Of a stretch of DNA of 64,000 nt, positions 28,843 to 57,072 are shown piece by piece. The notes below the pieces were generated by a model, which worked only from the letters and a program-made list of their open reading frames with translations, had not been told where the DNA came from and did not search any database. The DNA comes from Patescibacteria group bacterium (lineage in GTDB: Bacteria > Patescibacteriota > Minisyncoccia > Phycocordibacterales > Phycocordibacteraceae), in assembly GCA_019744845.1 (NCBI GenBank), contig JAIETW010000002.1, positions 69,759 to 133,758 on the forward strand. The letters run 5' to 3'. A program made the position numbers and the translations under genes. Position 1 is the stretch's first letter. Each line of letters opens with the position of its first letter.

Positions 28843-28918
28843 GCCGAGATAGCTCAGTTGGTAGAGCAACGCACTTGTAATGCGTAGGTCGCGAGTTCGA
28901 ATCTCGCTCTCGGCTCCA
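28843..28918 (+). tRNA. tRNA-Thr (anticodon UGU), CCA encoded
   Basis: Folded by eye as a cloverleaf. Acceptor GCCGAGA/TCTCGGC, D-arm GCTC-AGTTGGTA-GAGC, anticodon stem ACGCA/TGCGT with loop CTTGTAA, T-arm GCGAG-TTCGAAT-CTCGC, then T-CCA; 76 nt. Confidence 0.9.
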
Positions 28919-49374: not shown

Positions 49375-49557
49375 ATGTCTGATTCAATGGAAGCGGGTGG
49401 GAAGCCCCTTAAGCTTAACGAAACTCCTGAGGCGGCGTTGAAACGTCTGCAAGGCGCTGAGCGTTTGATGAGACTCAACCCATTTAAAGATCAGAATAAG
49501 TTAGCGGCCCTTCAGGCAGAGATTGCACGCCTCGGTGCGGAGATACGAGGAGAGTAA
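49375..49557 (+). CDS. Small hypothetical protein (60 aa)
   Basis: ORF ends 2 nt before the rnhB start; predicted helical with a coiled-coil-like C-terminus. No recognisable family. Confidence 0.35.
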   Translation: MSDSMEAGGKPLKLNETPEAALKRLQGAERLMRLNPFKDQNKLAALQAEIARLGAEIRGE

Positions 49558-50147: not shown

Positions 50148-50189
50148 GCCCCGTTGCGGGAAACGGCTATATACGGTAAGGTAGCGCCT

Positions 50190-50534
50190 ATGTCTGTACG
50201 AATGCGCCACACGAGCTCCCACACGAAGAATCGTCGGAGTCATCATGCCCTTAAGAACAAGAAAATAGTGACGGATAAGGAGACCGGAAATCTCCGTCTT
50301 CCGCACCGTCTTGATGAAAAGACCGGTATGTACCGCGGTAAGCTTATCGTCCCTCCAAAGGTAAAGAAGGCAAAGAAGGACTATGCTAAGGCGGATAAGA
50401 TCGGCCCTGCAGAAGGAAAGGTGCACCTAGAAAAGGTAGATGAGCCAAAGATAGAGAAGAAGGAAAAGGGTCTTCTCGGTCGCATGACCAAAGGAAAGGC
50501 AAAGGCACGTTCAGGAATGGGAGGAGGAGTATAA
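50190..50534 (+). CDS. rpmF: 50S ribosomal protein L32 with long Lys-rich C-terminal extension
   Basis: MRHTSSHTKNRRSHHAL ... LPHR parallels the L32 N-terminus (KKSRSRRDMRRSHDAL ... PH). Start moved to an internal ATG. Confidence 0.7.
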   Translation: MSVRMRHTSSHTKNRRSHHALKNKKIVTDKETGNLRLPHRLDEKTGMYRGKLIVPPKVKKAKKDYAKADKIGPAEGKVHLEKVDEPKIEKKEKGLLGRMTKGKAKARSGMGGGV

Positions 50535-50614
50535 ATCCTGTCCCCACTGTACACAGGCCCACGCACGTGCGTGGGCTTTTTTGTCTGGTACTCTCATGAG
50601 AGTTCTTTCTATAT

Positions 50615-51514
50615 ATGGCCAATCGGCATCTCGCGCGTTCTCTTGTCCTTCAGTCCCTCTTTGAGTGGGATACGGCAGGTGTGCCTGTAGCGGAGGTGAA
50701 GAACATCCTTGCGCGTAACACCCGTGAGTTTGGAGGGGATGATACTGAAGGGCCATTTATGGAATCTCTCCTTGAAGGCGTGCTCGCAAAGCACGACGAT
50801 CTAGATTTGATTATTCAGAAGGCGGCACCCGACTGGCCGTTGAATCGCATTGCACCGATTGACCGAAACATTCTTCGGTTGGGACTCTATGAGCTTTTGT
50901 TTGCGGACCGTGACCAGGTACCACCGAAGGTGGCAATCAACGAAGCAATTGAGCTTGCAAAGATCTTTGGCGGGGAATCGTCAGGACGTTTTATTAACGG
51001 CGTGCTCGGTGCCGTGTACAAGGAGATGGGTGAGCCAGGAAAGGAAGATGGCGCTAAGAAGAAGGAGCGGATAGATCCGCGCACGCTTCCGGTGGAAGAA
51101 CTTGCAGGTGCGATCGTGTACGCGCCACACGAGGGTCAGTGCTACGTGGCACTGGTGCATGACGTCTTTGGACGCTGGACTCTGTCTAAGGGGCACATCA
51201 ATGAAGAAGAGACTCCGCAGCAGGGTGTGATTCGTGTGATTCAGGAGGAGCTTGGACTCACCGGTACGGTAGAAGAAGTGGTGGGAGAGAACGAATACAT
51301 CGCCTCACACCCTGAGAAAGGGAAGGTCCGTAAGCACGTGTACTTCTTTTTGGTAAAGACCGAGTTCTCAAAACTCTCTTTGAAGCAGAGTGGAGGCCTT
51401 GATGATGCCCGCTGGTTCCGGCTTGCGGATATTCGGGCCCTTAACTTCTACGACGACATGCTCCCAATCGTCACCTCGGCCGTCCAAAAGCTCCTTGATA
51501 AGGCTTTGAAGTAG
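50615..51514 (+). CDS. nusB: NusB (transcription antitermination) fused to C-terminal NUDIX hydrolase domain
   Basis: The first ~140 aa are NusB-like (LVLQSLFEWD ... LAKIFGGESSGRFINGVLG). The C-terminus has the Nudix box GHINEEETPQQGVIRVIQEELGL (G-x5-E-x7-REUxEExGU). Confidence 0.8.
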   Translation: MANRHLARSLVLQSLFEWDTAGVPVAEVKNILARNTREFGGDDTEGPFMESLLEGVLAKHDDLDLIIQKAAPDWPLNRIAPIDRNILRLGLYELLFADRDQVPPKVAINEAIELAKIFGGESSGRFINGVLGAVYKEMGEPGKEDGAKKKERIDPRTLPVEELAGAIVYAPHEGQCYVALVHDVFGRWTLSKGHINEEETPQQGVIRVIQEELGLTGTVEEVVGENEYIASHPEKGKVRKHVYFFLVKTEFSKLSLKQSGGLDDARWFRLADIRALNFYDDMLPIVTSAVQKLLDKALK

Positions 51515-51535: not shown

Positions 51536-52219
51536 ATGGAGTTTACTGACGCCGCAGAGAAGCTAGGGCTTCCGTTTCGTGATCTCGCGCTTCTAGAGGA
51601 GGCGCTCACGCACCGTTCCTATCTGAATGAGAATAGAAGCTCCAAGGCACACAATGAGCGCCTTGAGTTTCTTGGGGATGCAGTGCTTGAGCTTGCGACG
51701 ACACGCTTTCTTTTTGATAAGTTTCCAAAGAAACCAGAAGGGGAATTGACCGCGTATCGTGCCGCACTCGTGAATACGTATTCCATTGCTGCCGTGGCGC
51801 AGGAGCTTGGGGTAAACGACATGCTCCTTCTTTCAAAGGGAGAGAAACGGGATACGGGACGTGCGCGTCAGATCATTCTTGCGAACGCGTTTGAAGCAAT
51901 TGTGGGTGCGGTCTATCTTGACCAGGGGTATGACGCGGCAGAAGTATTTCTTGCGAAGCATCTCTATCCAAAACTAGAGAGTGTGCTTGAAGAGCGAAGC
52001 TATCAGGATGCAAAGAGTCGTTTCCAAGAACTCGCCCAGGAACATGATGGGGTGACGCCGAAGTACAAGACACTAGAGGAGACGGGACCTGACCACGACC
52101 GTCAGTTCACGGTCGGTGTATTTATAGGAGATGAGGAGATTGCGCAGGGAGAAGGGAAGAGCAAGCAGGAGGCAGAGCAGGATGCAGCCAAGAAGGGGTT
52201 AGAGAAGAAGAAGTGGTAG
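51536..52219 (+). CDS. rnc: Ribonuclease III
   Basis: HRSY ... ERLEFLGDAVLEL signature and a C-terminal dsRBD. Confidence 0.92.
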   Translation: MEFTDAAEKLGLPFRDLALLEEALTHRSYLNENRSSKAHNERLEFLGDAVLELATTRFLFDKFPKKPEGELTAYRAALVNTYSIAAVAQELGVNDMLLLSKGEKRDTGRARQIILANAFEAIVGAVYLDQGYDAAEVFLAKHLYPKLESVLEERSYQDAKSRFQELAQEHDGVTPKYKTLEETGPDHDRQFTVGVFIGDEEIAQGEGKSKQEAEQDAAKKGLEKKKW

Positions 52220-52259: not shown

Positions 52260-52754
52260 ATGAGTGAGCCGACGTTCCCAACACCCAAGCAGCCCGTGCC
52301 TACCGAAGTACCAGAAGAGGCGACCTCACGCGTTTTGCAAGACGTCTTCACTAGTTACTTATTTGATCTAAACGACGCAGGTGGGTCTAGTTCAACCGCT
52401 ACAAGCGCGATTTTCTATCGCTCAAAACTTCCTAGAGTGCTGGCAAGACAGATGGGAGCGATGTCAGGGTTACGCGCCGCCCTCCATGATCCCAGAGTAT
52501 CCAGGGCGAAAGCAGACTCTCTTCCCCCCGCCTACTTCGACAATCTTGATCAGATTATATTGTTCTTTACGCAAGCAGCCCATGACGAAGGTCTGCAAGA
52601 CAAGCTTTGGGCAAAAATGTGCGCAATTTGTGAACTTCCTCCAGAAACAAAGGAAATCCAGTTTAGTCAGGTTTTTGACACACTTAGAGCCAAGGGCTAC
52701 GGGCAATTAAAGATAGATAAGCGTGATGGCAGCAATTCATCTGAGGAGACATAG
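52260..52754 (+). CDS. Hypothetical protein (164 aa)
   Basis: ORF only; no family motif recognised. Confidence 0.5.
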   Translation: MSEPTFPTPKQPVPTEVPEEATSRVLQDVFTSYLFDLNDAGGSSSTATSAIFYRSKLPRVLARQMGAMSGLRAALHDPRVSRAKADSLPPAYFDNLDQIILFFTQAAHDEGLQDKLWAKMCAICELPPETKEIQFSQVFDTLRAKGYGQLKIDKRDGSNSSEET

Positions 52755-53408: not shown

Positions 53409-53711
53409 ATGCTTGATAGTTTTCTTCTAACTAGACTCAAGAAAACAAATTACCCGCTCTATGTACTATGGCGGGCGATTCTTCATGTCGCTAGCTCCCT
53501 GGTTCTTCTCTTCGTTTCGCACCTTGTGGCGTTAGAGTACGGGTATAATGCGCCCGCGTACGTATTTGCCGCATTGCTTATTTTCATAACCTACCTAGAG
53601 TTTTATCTGCATCCAAAGCTCTATCACCAAAAGCTCTCAAAAGGCATCATAGATTGGCTCTCCTGGATCCTACCGTTCATACTGTATTTTCTCTTTCTTG
53701 GAATCCTGTAA
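53409..53711 (+). CDS. Small multi-pass membrane protein (100 aa)
   Basis: Three hydrophobic helices. Confidence 0.45.
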   Translation: MLDSFLLTRLKKTNYPLYVLWRAILHVASSLVLLFVSHLVALEYGYNAPAYVFAALLIFITYLEFYLHPKLYHQKLSKGIIDWLSWILPFILYFLFLGIL

Positions 53712-53751: not shown

Positions 53752-54462
53752 TCAATTCTCTCGCTTTGTGCCAATAAGCACTTTGCGAAGGAGGGGGCTC
53801 ATGAGTCCAACCAGTAAACCAAGCAACAAAAGCCCCACAAAACGTCCCAATATCATAACGGCTTTTCCCGCTTCGGTTGCAGGCTCGGAATACGGCACGT
53901 CTCCAAGAATGATCAGAAGCGACCAGAACATGCCAGACGGTATGTCGTGTGCACTTGATCCAGCACCCTCGAATATATAGAGCAAGGTGCCTAGCAACAA
54001 AAGCGCTATGAGCATAGCGACAAAATAAATTTGAATATTCACGATATAGAGCGAACGTTCTCCGTGATGCTGTTCTATTCTGGCAACCTTTGCGAGCCGT
54101 ATCATCCTTAGGAGGCGAAGAATACGGAGTGCGCGTGTCGTTTTAAGAAACGTAAAGTTCCCAAGCGCAAGGAGTGAAGGAAGAATAGCCAACAAGTCTA
54201 TAATGCCGAAGAAGCTGAAGATGTATCGGAACTTGGCACGTGCGATATAGACACGCGCACCATATTCCGTAAGAAAACATACGACACTTATCCATTCAAT
54301 TGCTTTGAAGATTGCATGATACTCACTCAGTGACGGCACTGTCTCAAGAACAAGGGCAAGAACGGAGGCGATTGTGAGAAACGCCAGAAAGTCGTTAACG
54401 ATGATGAAAAGTCGTGATTGTGGATTTTCAAGTGCGTTGCGAAGTGCGTTCCCAGAGTTCAT
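53752..54462 (-). CDS. Voltage-gated ion channel family protein (single 6-TM-like unit, S4-type voltage sensor)
   Basis: S4-like RALRILRLLRMIRLAKVAR with Arg at every third position, preceded by ~3 TM helices and followed by a pore-like segment and TM (SLLIILGDVPYSE). Confidence 0.7.
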   Translation of the reverse strand: MNSGNALRNALENPQSRLFIIVNDFLAFLTIASVLALVLETVPSLSEYHAIFKAIEWISVVCFLTEYGARVYIARAKFRYIFSFFGIIDLLAILPSLLALGNFTFLKTTRALRILRLLRMIRLAKVARIEQHHGERSLYIVNIQIYFVAMLIALLLLGTLLYIFEGAGSSAHDIPSGMFWSLLIILGDVPYSEPATEAGKAVMILGRFVGLLLLGLLVGLMSPLLRKVLIGTKREN

Positions 54463-54533: not shown

Positions 54534-54851
54534 ATGTCTGAAGATCTAAAACAGTCAGGTGAAGCCCTTCCCAAGGAGCTTCAAAATCTTATTACCACAT
54601 ACGAGGGAGCCTCAGAAGATCGTTGGATTGAATGGTCCAAAGAGTGGGATCTAGAAACCACTCGCCTTATCAGAAATACGGCCGTCGCCGTGCTGCAGCT
54701 TGGGGAAGAGAGCAGAAAAGCAAAACGCAAAGAGGGCATTGACCTTCATAACGATGGATCTCCAGAGTCTGCACTTACCGCTCCTCTGTTCTTTATTTCT
54801 GAAGCCGCATTGAAGCGCATTGAGTCGGGCCTCAACCAAGTCATCACCTAA
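54534..54851 (+). CDS. Hypothetical protein (105 aa)
   Basis: ORF only. Confidence 0.4.
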   Translation: MSEDLKQSGEALPKELQNLITTYEGASEDRWIEWSKEWDLETTRLIRNTAVAVLQLGEESRKAKRKEGIDLHNDGSPESALTAPLFFISEAALKRIESGLNQVIT

Positions 54852-54882: not shown

Positions 54883-57072
54883 ATGTTGAAGCGACTAGAA
54901 ATCGCCGGATTCAAATCATTCGCGAAGAAAACTTCGCTTGATTTCTCGTCGTCGGTAACCGCAATTGTGGGCCCAAACGGTTCTGGTAAATCAAACGTCG
55001 CTGAAGCCTTTCGTTTTGCACTTGGTGAGCAGTCTATGAAAAGCATGCGTGGAAAGCGCAGTGAGGATCTTATCTGGAGCGGGTCTAACACCTCTCCTCG
55101 TTCTAACCGCGCGTCTGTTGCGGTGGTGTTTGATAACCGAAAGAAGATTTTCCCAAAGATGGAGTTTGATGAGGTGTCTATTGAGCGCGCCGTATTCCGC
55201 GATGGTGCGAGCGAATATTCAGTGAACGGATCTAAAGTACGCCTTCGTGATGTGCAGGAACTCCTTGCAAGCGCCAACATTGGTGACACGGGGCACCACA
55301 TCATTTCGCAAGGAGAAGCAGATCGTATTCTTCTCTCTGCACCTCGCGAACGTCGTGCCATGCTTGAGGATGCACTTGGTCTTCGTGTCTTTGAATTTAA
55401 GAAACAAGAGGCAGAGAAGAAGCTTGAGAAGACGGAAGAGAATGTAAAGCAAGTGGAGGCACTTCGTCGGGAGATTCTTCCGCATATTAAATTCCTTTCA
55501 AAGCAGGTGGAGAAGCTGGAGCGTGCAGAAGAACTCATTAAAGAGCTCACCGCTGCCGCGCGTGAATACTTTGCAATAGAAGAGCTCTACATTCGCTCAG
55601 AGAAAGCGACGTCTACCACGCGTCTTAAAGATGCGACAGAGCGTCTTGCAACTGTGTCTGCAGAACTCGCACCACTCCAAGACCGTGCCGCTATGGATTC
55701 TGAGGGAATGAAGCGTGCAGAAGCCGTACGGAATGCTGAGCGTGAGCTTGATCGTGCACTTGGGGAACACGCCACACTGTCTCGTGAGATTGGACGCATA
55801 GAGGGTGCACTTGAAGGAGCACGTAAGCGCGCAGACGCTGCTGCGCAAGAGCCATACGTGAAGGTATCTCGTGAAGACCTGTCTGCATTGAAGAGTGAAG
55901 TAGAGGCACAGACACGCATTGGAGATGGGAGCCCTGAAGCGATTCGTGCTGCCTTCATGGCCATTAAGTCTGCCCTCACAGCGTTCTTTGACCGCTTTGC
56001 AGGAGGAAGTGAGCGAATGGCGGAAGAAGAGCGTGAAGTGTATGCGCTAGAAGAAGAGAGGAAGAATCTCGTGGCGCGTGAAGAAGAACTTGCTGCTGCG
56101 TCTGAGAAAGCTCGCCACGCGCTCGTTCGTGCACGTGAAGAGTCTGCTGCGCACGAGGAGACCGGACGTGAGAATCAGTATCGTGTGCTTGATATGGCAG
56201 AAGCTAAAGCACGGGAGGAAGCAACGGTCGCTCGAGAAGAGGGTCGCCAGCGTGAACTCGCTATGCTTGCAGAAGAGCTTGAGCGTGACCGTGCGGAAGT
56301 CATGGCGCTTGCAGGCACTGCGGCACTTTCATACGCGCCCCTGTCTTCACTTCCAGAGGAAGAACGTCGTGTGCAGGAAGATCGTAAGCGCAGTATGGAG
56401 CGTCTTAAGATTCGCGTAGAAGAAGCGGGAGGAACCGGAGAGGACGTGCGTGCTGAATACAATGACGCGACTGAACGTGAGCAGTTCCTTACCCGTGAGC
56501 TTGAGGATCTTGCGAAGTCTGCCGAAGGACTCCGTGCTCTTATCAGTGATCTTGATGAGGAGCTTGGAAAGACTTTTGCGGAAGGGCTTGCCAAGGTGAA
56601 CGCATCGTTCACTGAATTCTTTGCAATTATGTTCGGAGGAGGAAGTGCACGTTTGATACTTGAAGAACCAGAGGAACCAGATGAGGAGGATGAAGAAGGA
56701 GTAGTACGCGAAGGGAAGCCAGGCATTGAAATTGCAGTGAATCTTCCAAAGAAGCGGGTGCAGGCACTCATGCAGCTTTCTGGAGGAGAGCGTGCCTTGA
56801 CCAGCATCGCGCTTATCTTTGCGATGAGTCAGGTGAATCCGCCCCCATTCCTTATTCTTGATGAAACGGATGCCGCACTTGATGAGGCGAACTCTCGCCG
56901 CTATGGCGACATGATTGAAGGACTGGCGAAGAAATCACAGCTCGTCGTCATTACCCACAATCGTGAGACCATGAGCCGTGCAGGTATACTCTACGGAGTC
57001 ACCATGGGAAATGATGGAATTAGTAAGTTGTTATCCGTTAAATTTGAAGAAGCGATGATGGTCGCTAAATAG
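54883..57072 (+). CDS. SMC-family chromosome-associated ATPase, unusually short and without an obvious hinge
   Basis: N-terminal AIVGPNGSGKSNVAEAFRFALGEQS (Walker A, SMC N-terminus), a long Ala/Glu/Arg coiled coil, a C-terminal signature LSGGERALTSIALIFAM, and Walker B ILDETDAALD. Confidence 0.8.
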   Translation: MLKRLEIAGFKSFAKKTSLDFSSSVTAIVGPNGSGKSNVAEAFRFALGEQSMKSMRGKRSEDLIWSGSNTSPRSNRASVAVVFDNRKKIFPKMEFDEVSIERAVFRDGASEYSVNGSKVRLRDVQELLASANIGDTGHHIISQGEADRILLSAPRERRAMLEDALGLRVFEFKKQEAEKKLEKTEENVKQVEALRREILPHIKFLSKQVEKLERAEELIKELTAAAREYFAIEELYIRSEKATSTTRLKDATERLATVSAELAPLQDRAAMDSEGMKRAEAVRNAERELDRALGEHATLSREIGRIEGALEGARKRADAAAQEPYVKVSREDLSALKSEVEAQTRIGDGSPEAIRAAFMAIKSALTAFFDRFAGGSERMAEEEREVYALEEERKNLVAREEELAAASEKARHALVRAREESAAHEETGRENQYRVLDMAEAKAREEATVAREEGRQRELAMLAEELERDRAEVMALAGTAALSYAPLSSLPEEERRVQEDRKRSMERLKIRVEEAGGTGEDVRAEYNDATEREQFLTRELEDLAKSAEGLRALISDLDEELGKTFAEGLAKVNASFTEFFAIMFGGGSARLILEEPEEPDEEDEEGVVREGKPGIEIAVNLPKKRVQALMQLSGGERALTSIALIFAMSQVNPPPFLILDETDAALDEANSRRYGDMIEGLAKKSQLVVITHNRETMSRAGILYGVTMGNDGISKLLSVKFEEAMMVAK

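Follow-up and report, generated by a model that had tools for sequence, protein, structure and literature searches.

A NusB-Nudix fusion with a degenerate Nudix box and a conserved putative ligand pocket in Patescibacteria

Introduction

NusB is among the most conserved single-domain transcription factors. The canonical proteins of Aquifex aeolicus (3R2C/3R2D), Thermotoga maritima (1TZV) and E. coli consist of one domain of about 140 residues. In the A. aeolicus protein (AaNusB), F122 stacks on U8 of boxA, while E81 reads U8 and contacts NusE; the published boxA consensus is GYTCTTTAANA (PMC5725501). In the E. coli rRNA antitermination complex, an enzyme fold is associated with NusB/E-boxA in the form of SuhB, a separate polypeptide with an inositol monophosphatase fold for which catalysis is probably not the main role; SuhB is genetically linked to rnc, and in E. 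coli there is a functional link between nusB and rnc. RsmB/Sun combines a NusB-like N-terminal domain with an rRNA methyltransferase, such that a NusB-type domain can deliver an attached enzyme to rRNA.

The ApnA hydrolases of the Nudix superfamily (Aquifex aq_158, 3I7U; T. thermophilus Ndx1, 1VC8; Chlamydia CT771; human NUDT2; mycobacterial MutT1/Rv2985) and the related RppH belong to a part of the superfamily that acts on dinucleoside polyphosphates and on RNA 5' ends or caps (PMC7705103). The RExxEE motif of the Nudix box binds the metal cofactor, with the RE glutamate being a direct ligand of two metals, and the residue serving as catalytic base differs among Nudix enzymes (PMC5526541). 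RppH with the E53A substitution is inactive (PMC6061791).

CFIm25/NUDT21, the Nudix-fold subunit of the mRNA 3'-processing factor CF Im, binds both ATP and Ap4A but hydrolyses neither. GDP-mannose mannosyl hydrolase is active with a modified Nudix box. In the NrtR family (3GZ8; AraR, 5BS6), a Nudix domain that senses an effector is joined to one that binds nucleic acid and controls transcription, and in Dcp2 a helical regulatory domain is connected through a hinge to a Nudix domain directed at RNA 5' ends. Full-text literature searches found no published description of a natural accessory domain on NusB, or of a NusB-Nudix fusion. Here we describe such a fusion, encoded in a 64-kb stretch of DNA (hereafter, the window), homologues of which are labelled simply "NusB" in public records.

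Results

A NusB-Nudix fusion gene occupies the nusB locus

An earlier note on this DNA had claimed that NusB is fused to a NUDIX hydrolase domain. We found that a single 299-aa ORF indeed encodes both domains, joined by a disordered basic linker (Table 1), with Pfam NusB matching residues 7-136 (E 4e-33) and Pfam NUDIX matching residues 165-280 (E 4e-13), both above the gathering score. The peptides that the note quoted are present, except that "GFINGVLG" should read "GRFINGVLG".

Table 1. Coordinates of the fusion gene, its parts and its neighbours within the window
Feature	Position (nt)	Strand	Description	Basis
rpmF (ribosomal protein L32)	50154..50534	+	Upstream neighbour; long K/E-rich C-terminal tail	Pfam Ribosomal_L32p (residues 18-65), TIGR01031
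Terminator-like hairpin and T-run	50555..50578	+	Between rpmF and nusB-Nudix	10-bp stem, 7 GC pairs, then TTTTTGT
boxA-like motif GTTCTTT	50602..50608	+	13 nt before the nusB-Nudix start codon	
nusB-Nudix fusion gene	50615..51514	+	299 aa and stop codon	One uninterrupted ORF
NusB domain	50615..51034	+	Residues 1-140, all-helical	TIGR01951, AF2, Foldseek
Flexible basic linker	51035..51094	+	Residues 141-160 (GEPGK...KKK)	pLDDT <50 at residues 141-151
Nudix-fold domain, ApnA-hydrolase-like	51095..51511	+	Residues 161-299	Pfam NUDIX (E 4e-13), PDB matches, Foldseek
Degenerate Nudix box	51191..51259	+	Residues 193-215, GHINEEETPQQGVIRVIQEELGL	R-V in place of R-E
Val208 codon (GTG)	51236..51238	+	Where the catalytic "RE" glutamate, a metal ligand, would stand	Alignment
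rnc (RNase III)	51536..52219	+	21 nt downstream of nusB-Nudix	Pfam Ribonucleas_3_3 and dsrm

A fused ORF could be produced artificially, by a frameshift that joins two genes or by a chimeric contig, and the earlier note had suggested both that related genomes be compared for fused and separate genes and that a frameshift between two ORFs would undermine its claim. Both domains are present in one protein in all of the 120 closest protein clusters, and in a single ORF at 49 GTDB species loci; among the latter we found no split nusB and Nudix genes and no domain loss. Clustering at 50% identity gave about 58 full-length NusB-Nudix fusion clusters, the most distant of which are down to 31% identical. 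Frameshifted copies of the gene do occur in a few public MAGs (L046, L049). Nonetheless, the continuous ORF with its conserved GEPGK linker recurs across over 120 independent clusters and the genomes of 49 species, which come from many studies. Because the closest clusters and the GTDB loci all have both domains in one ORF, we rule out an assembly or sequencing artefact, to which we assign next to no probability. We conclude that the fusion is genuine, that it sits at the native NusB position, and that it is widespread in one bacterial group.

The surroundings of the gene also agree with the earlier note, which had placed it in a conserved rpmF-rnc neighbourhood: the gene for L32 lies upstream, and the RNase III gene lies immediately downstream. 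rpmF precedes nusB in most related loci, the adjacency of nusB and rnc is kept in nearly all of 80 loci regardless of whether NusB is fused, and the gene order dnaE(-)/rnhB/rpmF/nusB/rnc/smc is identical in fused and NusB-only genomes. In NusB-only Patescibacteria, the position of the fusion gene is occupied by a plain nusB whose product carries just a short K/E-rich tail; nusB runs straight to rnc at these loci, with no separate Nudix gene. Consistent with this synteny, and with the absence of a second NusB from the window, the fusion gene is the orthologue of the single-copy nusB of related genomes. The window also lacks a second Nudix gene and, by Rfam, any rRNA, a single tRNA being the only match. 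We considered adjacent, separate nusB and Nudix genes as a precursor of the fusion, and found none in NusB-only relatives. Likewise, apparent standalone orthologues of the fused Nudix domain were rejected, as the Nudix-only matches are mostly fragments that start inside NusB or at the GEPGK linker.

The hairpin between rpmF and the fusion gene is a probable boundary of the transcription unit. There is no comparable hairpin between nusB-Nudix and rnc, and the two genes are probably co-transcribed; a search around the fusion gene for a sigma-70-type promoter did not find one. The GTTCTTT motif shortly before the start codon matches the first 7 nt of the boxA consensus. It is found upstream of nusB at 19 of 78 loci, as compared to 0/36, 0/70 and 1/46 for control genes, and shuffled upstream regions had a mean of 0.86 matches. 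We regard the motif as a candidate NusB/NusE binding site for autoregulation of nusB.

The N-terminal domain is a full NusB

The first 140 residues of the fusion protein correspond to the whole of canonical NusB, as the earlier note had supposed. They score 129.1 bits against the NCBIfam NusB equivalog TIGR01951 (cut-off 88.35), the AF2 model places helices across residues 4-138, and Foldseek gives a TM of 0.84 to both Aquifex 3r2d_B and Thermotoga 1tzv. Residues of the pocket for boxA U8 are also present: F126 aligns with AaNusB F122 and is 100% conserved in the fusion family, and D83, which is 94% conserved, aligns with AaNusB E81; Thermotoga NusB likewise has an Asp at the position equivalent to D83. 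We rejected RsmB membership, since matches to RsmB models fall far short of the cut-off and the fusion protein has no methyltransferase.

Where canonical NusB ends, the fusion protein continues through the linker, which has a pI of 9.55 and is the least conserved segment of the protein, into a further domain of about 140 residues. The AF2 model of the whole protein (mean pLDDT 82, pTM 0.48) consists of two domains and a disordered linker, with no defined inter-domain geometry.

The C-terminal domain resembles ApnA hydrolases and has a degenerate Nudix box

In the AF2 model, the Nudix half has strands over residues 160-249 and a helix at residues 201-213, in keeping with the alpha/beta/alpha Nudix fold and its loop-helix-loop at the box. 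Its best sequence matches in the PDB are Ndx1 (an Ap6A hydrolase), the Aquifex Ap4A hydrolase and CT771, and Foldseek gives a TM of 0.87 to 3i7u (the Aquifex enzyme) and 0.84 to 1vc8 (Ndx1), with MutT1/Rv2985 and CT771 as further near structural matches and the NrtR Nudix domain among the best. The features that ApnA hydrolases and the fused domain share are a WxxxKGH motif, a downstream stacking Tyr, a second stacking aromatic residue and a phosphate-binding Lys; in the fusion protein, K192 lies in WxxPKGH, Y228 after the box and Y279 near the C-terminal helix, and all three are invariant in 121 sequences. Judged by sequence and modelled fold, the Nudix half is closest to the ApnA hydrolases, within the ApnA-hydrolase/RppH-related part of the superfamily. 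Membership of RppH itself was rejected (NF001936, 23.7 bits versus a cut-off of 118; the equivalent of E53 is Val), as was membership of MutT, for which the NCBIfam equivalog is far below cut-off. The Nudix half is acidic (pI 5.5), which is unlike what would be expected of a domain that grips the body of an RNA and, as such, counts against a binding module.

The earlier note had described a complete Nudix box with the catalytic REx2EE, and had named a box lacking catalytic residues on alignment as evidence against its proposal. Aligned with GX5EX7REUXEEXGU, the box reads G193-HINEE-E199-TPQQGVI-R207-V208-I-Q-E211-E212-L-G214-L215. The motif is hence R-V-I-Q-E-E, with Val208 in place of the metal-ligand glutamate; in the alignment, Val208 faces E58 in human NUDT2 and E53 in RppH from E. 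coli. Among the 121 closest sequences, position 208 is V (108) or I (13) and never E; position 199, the glutamate of GX5E, is E in only two, with P, A, V or T in the other 119. By contrast with the RE..EE box of ApnA hydrolases, the fusion has RV..EE, its GX5E glutamate is unconstrained in the clade, and the domain is attached to NusB. The absence of the RE glutamate on alignment weakens the enzymatic reading. E211, E212, R207, G193 and G214, together with the acidic pair D263/D264, are kept in the window's clade.

The box varies across the fusion family. All four box glutamates are kept in 31 of 98 members, the sister clade included, whereas many lineages have lost three or four of them and retain the Nudix domain. 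In an NJ tree, the canonical box is widespread, also in the sister clade, where the protein of Parcubacteria bacterium C7867-004 (L003) is one example of the RE form; independent replacements of the RE glutamate have led to V, I, K, A and S. The canonical box persists in sister clades, and within the family it has degenerated repeatedly. Where all four glutamates are kept, as in the sister clade, the domain is likely to have an enzymatic role.

We think it doubtful that the domain in the window's lineage has remained active as a pyrophosphohydrolase (of an RppH-like, Ap4A-hydrolase-like or decapping kind) that NusB tethers to boxA-bearing transcripts, where it would act on the pre-rRNA leader, turning its 5'-ppp or Np4N/NAD cap into 5'-p, or would degrade ApnA locally; this is essentially the reading of the earlier note. 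Its nearest matches are active ApnA hydrolases, the superfamily part in question includes RppH and Np4N-decapping activity, and the retention of E211/E212, R207 and D263/D264 in the window's clade, the complete boxes elsewhere in the family and the varying identity of the catalytic base would all be compatible with activity. However, the residue that has been lost ligates two metals, and changing it to Ala inactivates RppH; solved chains of human Ap4A hydrolase (4ick/4ijx/1xsa) carry the corresponding E58A. The first box glutamate has gone as well in 119 of 121 sequences, many lineages keep the domain without three or four of the glutamates, and conservation within the Nudix domain is lowest in the box helix (0.74-0.83), which is the opposite of what selection for catalysis would produce. 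The ApnA/RppH-type placement fits the note's proposal of activity on nucleotide caps or dinucleotide-capped RNAs, but an intact catalytic module is not supported in this protein, with its RE glutamate lost.

The putative ligand pocket is the most conserved part of the Nudix domain

K192, Y228, K235 and Y279 align with K42, Y82, K89 and F128 of NUDT2, which bind phosphate and stack on adenine. All four are invariant in 121/121 sequences, as are W188, H194, E225, E227, D263, D264 and W267, and among the 39 family members that have at most two box glutamates, K192, Y228 and Y279 still hardly vary. Conservation within the Nudix domain is highest in the pocket loops (0.96-0.98). For W188 and W267, conservation may reflect the stability of the fold and not the binding of a ligand. 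Overall, the alignments indicate that the ligand pocket is retained even though the RE catalytic residue has been lost.

These patterns of conservation bear on two other readings. Gene fusions are common in reduced genomes, and a housekeeping Nudix gene might have been fused to nusB by chance in a streamlined genome and then left to decay slowly, with no functional coupling, as the decayed boxes of many lineages could suggest. We consider this very improbable: the two halves are equally conserved (0.866 for Nudix and 0.860 for NusB), with the pocket residues of the Nudix half invariant, and such amino-acid conservation already implies a dN/dS well below 1 in that half; none of 49 species has split the gene or lost the domain; and next to the nusB of NusB-only relatives there is no Nudix gene that a simple read-through could have fused to it. 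Alternatively, the domain could be an enzyme fold put to structural use, a protein-protein adaptor with no small-molecule ligand, bridging NusB/S10-boxA to RNA polymerase, NusA/NusG or RNase III, much as SuhB bridges NusB/E-boxA to RNAP in E. coli. Dispensable catalytic residues, the tight linkage of the fusion to rnc, and the extreme conservation of the C-terminal helix (LNFYDDMLPIVT) and of several surface loops would all fit such an adaptor. Yet the most conserved residues (K192, Y228, K235, Y279) align with the nucleotide pocket of Ap4A hydrolases and not with an arbitrary surface, and no partner has been identified, such that we regard an adaptor role as unlikely.

Discussion

We propose that the Nudix half is a tethered nucleotide- or RNA-5'-end-binding module on a genuine NusB, comparable to CFIm25 or NrtR, and we give this proposal an even chance of being correct. 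The loss of box glutamates, combined with the invariance of the pocket residues, makes binding with at best slow hydrolysis the most likely activity; the domain is more likely to bind or sense a nucleotide or RNA 5' end than to cut it. Some hydrolysis, an altered chemistry or a metal site may nevertheless persist, since E211, E212, R207, G193, G214 and D263/D264 are retained. What the data show is the architecture, the locus and its orthology, the fold, the resemblance to a subfamily, the missing box residues and the kept pocket; that this pocket still binds a nucleotide, which ligand it takes, and whether antitermination or the processing of rRNA is affected, are matters of inference.

The comparison with CFIm25 and NrtR is one of functional analogy rather than membership, there being no specific sequence relationship. 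Like the fusion, CFIm25 lacks two of the four box glutamates, has a hydrophobic residue in place of the same "second" one, and works in an RNA-processing machine. However, CFIm25 misses the second and fourth glutamates, whereas the window's lineage misses the first and second; it is also eukaryotic, forms a dimer that binds UGUA RNA, and is not detectably closer in sequence to the fusion than are other Nudix proteins. NrtR is similar in architecture, but it has a winged-helix DNA-binding domain and acts at initiation, whereas the partner of the Nudix domain here is an RNA-binding elongation factor. SuhB differs in fold and is a separate polypeptide, whereas the Nudix domain is part of the NusB chain. 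Lastly, Foldseek aligned Dcp2 across both domains of the fusion. Because the rmsd of the superposition is about 14 A, we reject kinship across both domains and treat Dcp2 as an analogy of architecture only.

A plausible history begins with nusB already located between rpmF and rnc, as it is in relatives. The fusion would have arisen once, in a sub-lineage of the Paceibacteria (Parcubacteria), by addition of a Nudix module to the end of nusB; the box of this module was probably complete and active. The window's lineage has since lost two of the four glutamates, one of them the metal-ligand "RE" glutamate that is now Val208. The gene product is the NusB orthologue of the organism, the boxA-RNA- and S10-binding member of the rRNA transcription complex, joined by some 20 flexible, basic residues to a Nudix domain presumably descended from an ApnA-hydrolase/RppH-like pyrophosphohydrolase. 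The Nudix domain most likely binds a purine-nucleotide-polyphosphate moiety, hydrolysing it slowly at best. Candidate ligands are the (p)ppN or Np4N-type cap at the 5' terminus of nascent pre-rRNA that bears boxA, and a free nucleotide of the ApnA type; with either, the NusB/S10-boxA complex, which prepares pre-rRNA for RNase III, would gain a second, ligand-dependent contact.

A bolder version of this proposal, which we advance only tentatively and consider rather unlikely, is that NusB in a large branch of the Paceibacteria has become a ligand-gated or 5'-end-sensing elongation factor. A pseudo-enzyme Nudix domain would read the 5' end of pre-rRNA (ppp or Np4N-type cap), or the level of ApnA, and would control assembly or persistence of the NusB/S10-boxA complex; the status of stress nucleotides could in this way be coupled to antitermination, to RNase III processing and, via the boxA-like leader site, to expression of NusB.

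The fusion family constitutes a natural series from a canonical to a fully decayed box, with an invariant pocket throughout. Because of this series, whether the domain is an enzyme or a sensor is directly testable with a few recombinant proteins. Even if the domain were just a slow or inactive hydrolase that regulates nothing, the annotation would have been usefully corrected. The hosts of the fusion are minimal-genome organisms, and the fact that dozens of candidate-phylum lineages have an ApnA-hydrolase/RppH-type module fixed on NusB suggests that the machinery for rRNA transcription and maturation is linked to the chemistry of RNA 5' ends or of dinucleoside polyphosphates.

The NusB-Nudix fusion is old and lineage-wide

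Both halves of the protein encoded by nusB-Nudix match their Pfam families above the gathering score, NusB over residues 7-136 (E = 4e-33) and NUDIX over residues 165-280 (E = 4e-13), and with 129 bits the sequence passes the 88-bit cut-off of the NCBIfam NusB equivalog model TIGR01951. With a single 299-aa ORF, the fusion that an earlier note had described from the sequence therefore holds, as does its rpmF-rnc neighbourhood: the genes for RNase HII and L32 (rpmF) lie 5' of nusB-Nudix, rnc (RNase III) begins 21 nt 3' of it, and a gene for a short SMC-like protein follows. A terminator-like hairpin follows rpmF, which suggests that nusB-Nudix and rnc are transcribed as a separate unit. We found no second NusB or Nudix in the window.

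Every one of the top 120 protein clusters (90% clustering; 72-95% identity; ~300 aa) has both Pfam domains; where named, these clusters are called plain 'NusB' and come from Paceibacterota, Parcubacteria or Patescibacteria MAGs. The architecture is thus already in public databases, labelled NusB only; full-text searches turned up no account of it. Searched exhaustively with HMMER, the 50%-identity representatives gave ~58 full-length fusion clusters, with identity as low as 31%, and among 49 diverse fusion members sampled, Pfam detected NusB in all 49 and NUDIX in 42. The earlier note had proposed checking related genomes for the fusion as against separate genes; scanning GTDB species genomes gave 80 nusB loci (L0xx handles below), with NusB and Nudix within one ORF in 49 and split in none. 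The fusion is real, old and lineage-wide, and the chance that it is an assembly artefact is vanishingly small.

Loci with the fusion carry labels such as Kaiser-, Zambryski-, Nomura-, Ryan-, Niyogi- and Komeilibacteria, and among the relatives with NusB only are Yanofsky-, Moran-, Azam-, Nealson- and Wildermuthbacteria. Both groups have their genes in the order dnaE(-)/rnhB/rpmF/nusB/rnc/smc. In NusB-only genomes rnc directly follows nusB, the protein has only a short K/E-rich tail, and no Nudix gene was found near nusB. Given the common gene order and the lack of an adjacent Nudix gene, the NusB half is the orthologue of ordinary nusB, and the Nudix module is a C-terminal addition made in a sub-lineage. 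We consider the architecture and the orthology practically certain.

In a few public MAGs, nusB-Nudix is frameshifted or cut at contig ends (loci L046, 5001-5449; L049, 4983-5543; and L048); these copies are pseudogenes or assembly errors and leave the conclusion unaffected. Two proteins from the homologue search, P0139 (254 aa) and P0173 (200 aa), have a whole Nudix half, but their NusB half is internally shortened and has lost C-terminal or middle helices. They may have arisen in assembly, or may come from lineages where NusB, not Nudix, decays.

Features of the window around nusB-Nudix, and its tRNA
Feature	Position	Strand	Remarks
tRNA	28843-28915	+	Rfam
ORF	49375-49557	+	no Pfam match
L32 (rpmF) ORF	50154-50534	+	126 aa; ~114 aa from likely ATG
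Terminator-like hairpin	50555-50578		after rpmF
boxA-like GTTCTTT	50602-50608	+	13 nt before nusB-Nudix start codon
nusB-Nudix	50615-51514	+	299 aa; uninterrupted
ORF	52260-52754	+	no Pfam match
ORF	53409-53711	+	no Pfam match
Membrane protein	53752-54462	-	236 aa; Pfam Ion_trans, E 6e-15
ORF	54534-54851	+	no Pfam match
SMC-like protein	54883-57072	+	729 aa; SMC_N head halves over residues 1-714

The L32 domain of the rpmF product spans residues 18-65 (the Pfam model has 56 positions), and after it comes a K/E-rich tail of ~60 residues. Typical bacterial SMC proteins have ~1150-1200 aa, and by comparison the SMC-like protein seems much reduced in its coiled coil or hinge; in relatives its length is similar. 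The Ion_trans match, together with an S4-like segment LRILRLLRMIRLAK, marks the membrane protein as a voltage-gated-type channel homologue in a minimal genome. A 164-aa ORF without a Pfam match sits between rnc and a HAD hydrolase gene; in most relatives rnc is followed by smc, with a gap of variable size between them.

The NusB half looks functional

In the AF2 prediction, residues 4-138 form a helical bundle that superposes on Aquifex and Thermotoga NusB with a TM of 0.84. Aquifex NusB, in its structure with NusE and boxA, stacks F122 on U8 of boxA and uses E81 both to read U8 and to touch NusE H15 (PMC3177189). These residues align with F126 and D83 of the fusion, conserved at 100% and 94% across the family; Thermotoga NusB also has Asp at the D83 position. 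From the alignment and the model, the NusB half looks functional. The linker between the domains is disordered and basic (residues 141-151 with pLDDT <50; pI 9.55), and the prediction fixes no mutual orientation of NusB and Nudix (pTM 0.48).

The GTTCTTT upstream of nusB-Nudix equals bases 1-7 of the published boxA consensus GYTCTTTAANA (PMC5725501); the window has no rRNA genes or riboswitches, its single Rfam match being one tRNA. Functional boxA copies occur ≤50 nt upstream of Nus-factor genes, where they mediate autoregulation (PMC5725501). Of 78 phylogenetically related loci, 19 have the strict motif within 60 nt 5' of nusB (18/51 with the fusion; 1/27 with NusB only), usually 7-16 nt from the ATG. 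Controls fall far below this: 0/36 upstream of rnhB, 0/70 upstream of rnc, 1/46 upstream of smc, 2% for random windows, and on average 0.86 hits (at most 4) when the upstream regions are shuffled. The other loci with GYTCTTT are L003, L004, L008, L012, L013, L015, L021, L025, L028, L029, L031, L034, L036, L037, L039, L040, L050 and L075; the motif is present three times in L050, and 10/11 consensus positions agree in L013 and L029. This pattern suggests that NusB/NusE may autoregulate the nusB-Nudix-rnc unit, a lead rather than a demonstration given the relatedness of the loci and the lack of a leader for comparison.

The Nudix box decays and the ligand pocket is conserved

In sequence, the Nudix half comes nearest, among solved proteins, to T. 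thermophilus Ndx1, which hydrolyses Ap6A, and to Aquifex Ap4A hydrolase, Chlamydia CT771, the Nudix domain of NrtR, and DIPP1. Comparison by fold gives as the closest Aquifex Ap4A hydrolase (TM 0.87), the diadenosine polyphosphatase MutT1/Rv2985, the Nudix domain of NrtR, Ndx1 (0.84), the Ap4A hydrolases of C. elegans and human, CT771 and BdRppH. This part of the superfamily cleaves dinucleoside polyphosphates and includes RppH/NudH, which also strips 5' pyrophosphate and Np4N caps off RNA (PMC7705103).

The earlier note had read a complete Nudix box with REx2EE, but the box is G193-x5-E199-x7-R207-V208-I-Q-E211-E212-L-G214-L as against GX5EX7REUXEEXGU: Val208 stands where Glu should follow Arg207. 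RExxEE binds essential metals, and its 'RE' glutamate ligates two of them in DHNTPase (PMC5526541). V208 aligns opposite E58 of human NUDT2 and E53 of E. coli RppH, a residue whose change to Ala (E53A) leaves RppH catalytically dead (PMC6061791); human Ap4A hydrolase PDB chains 4ick/4ijx/1xsa carry exactly E58A, reading LRATQEE. Among the 121 closest sequences, 108 have Val and 13 have Ile at position 208, and none has Glu; at position 199, that of the GX5E glutamate, all except two have Pro, Ala, Val or Thr. We judge from these replacements that catalysis is probably strongly impaired in the window protein.

Across 98 fusion proteins, all four box glutamates are present in 31, three in 28, and two or fewer in 39. 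In a neighbour-joining tree, many branches have the canonical box, among them the immediate sister clade (L002-L004, L042), and the RE glutamate has been independently replaced by V, I, K, A and S. In the sister clades (L002, L003, L004, L042, L010 and L021), RE..EE is intact and a 5-residue insertion lies between the box Gly and the first Glu, giving G-x10-E, not G-x5-E, another non-canonical geometry inside the family. Relatives with an intact box likely have an active cis-acting enzyme; that the window protein is itself still active in cis, as an RppH-like or decapping enzyme, is doubtful.

Human Ap4A hydrolase holds the P1 phosphate with K42, Y82 and K89 and sandwiches adenine between Y82 and F128 (PMC4734340). 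The aligned fusion residues K192, Y228, K235 and Y279 are invariant (121/121), as are W188, H194, E225, E227, D263, D264 and W267; in the 39 proteins with two or fewer box glutamates, K192 is kept in 38, Y279 in 39 and Y228 in 34, with Phe in four more. In the close clade, conservation of the Nudix domain is lowest over residues 190-219, the box segment (0.74-0.83), and highest in the pocket loops (0.96-0.98). It is an evenly balanced question whether this pocket still binds nucleotide. Taken whole, the Nudix half is conserved as well as the NusB half (0.866 versus 0.860), and we regard a neutral, decaying fusion as very improbable.

Repeated loss of catalysis, an invariant pocket and a domain that is never lost form the pattern expected of a binding domain, so the conserved job of the Nudix domain would be binding, not turnover. 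As the best explanation, we propose that it may be a tethered purine-nucleotide-polyphosphate-binding module, which would bind either the nascent boxA-bearing transcript at its 5' end or cap, or a free nucleotide of the ApnA type; taken whole, this proposal seems to us about equally apt to be right or wrong. Two precedents are documented. CFIm25, an RNA-processing subunit, lacks two box glutamates, including the second one (as here), where it has Leu, and binds ATP and Ap4A without hydrolysing them (PMC2425470). NrtR regulators, whose Nudix domain is among the top matches, use it as a sensor.

The NusB/E-boxA complex of E. coli keeps the rRNA leader tethered to RNAP, giving the 16S leader-trailer stem for RNase III, and rnc mutations suppress nusB defects (PMC4807359). 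The nusB-rnc adjacency kept in Patescibacteria fits this functional link. The same complex is bridged by SuhB, an enzyme fold whose activity is probably not its main role (PMC4807359); a comparable role as a protein adaptor is an unlikely one for the Nudix domain. The fusion varies known kinds of protein: a NusB to which a further domain is attached, and a Nudix fold that drifts away from catalysis towards binding. It is a conserved, unexpected extra on a core transcription factor, the function of which we infer.
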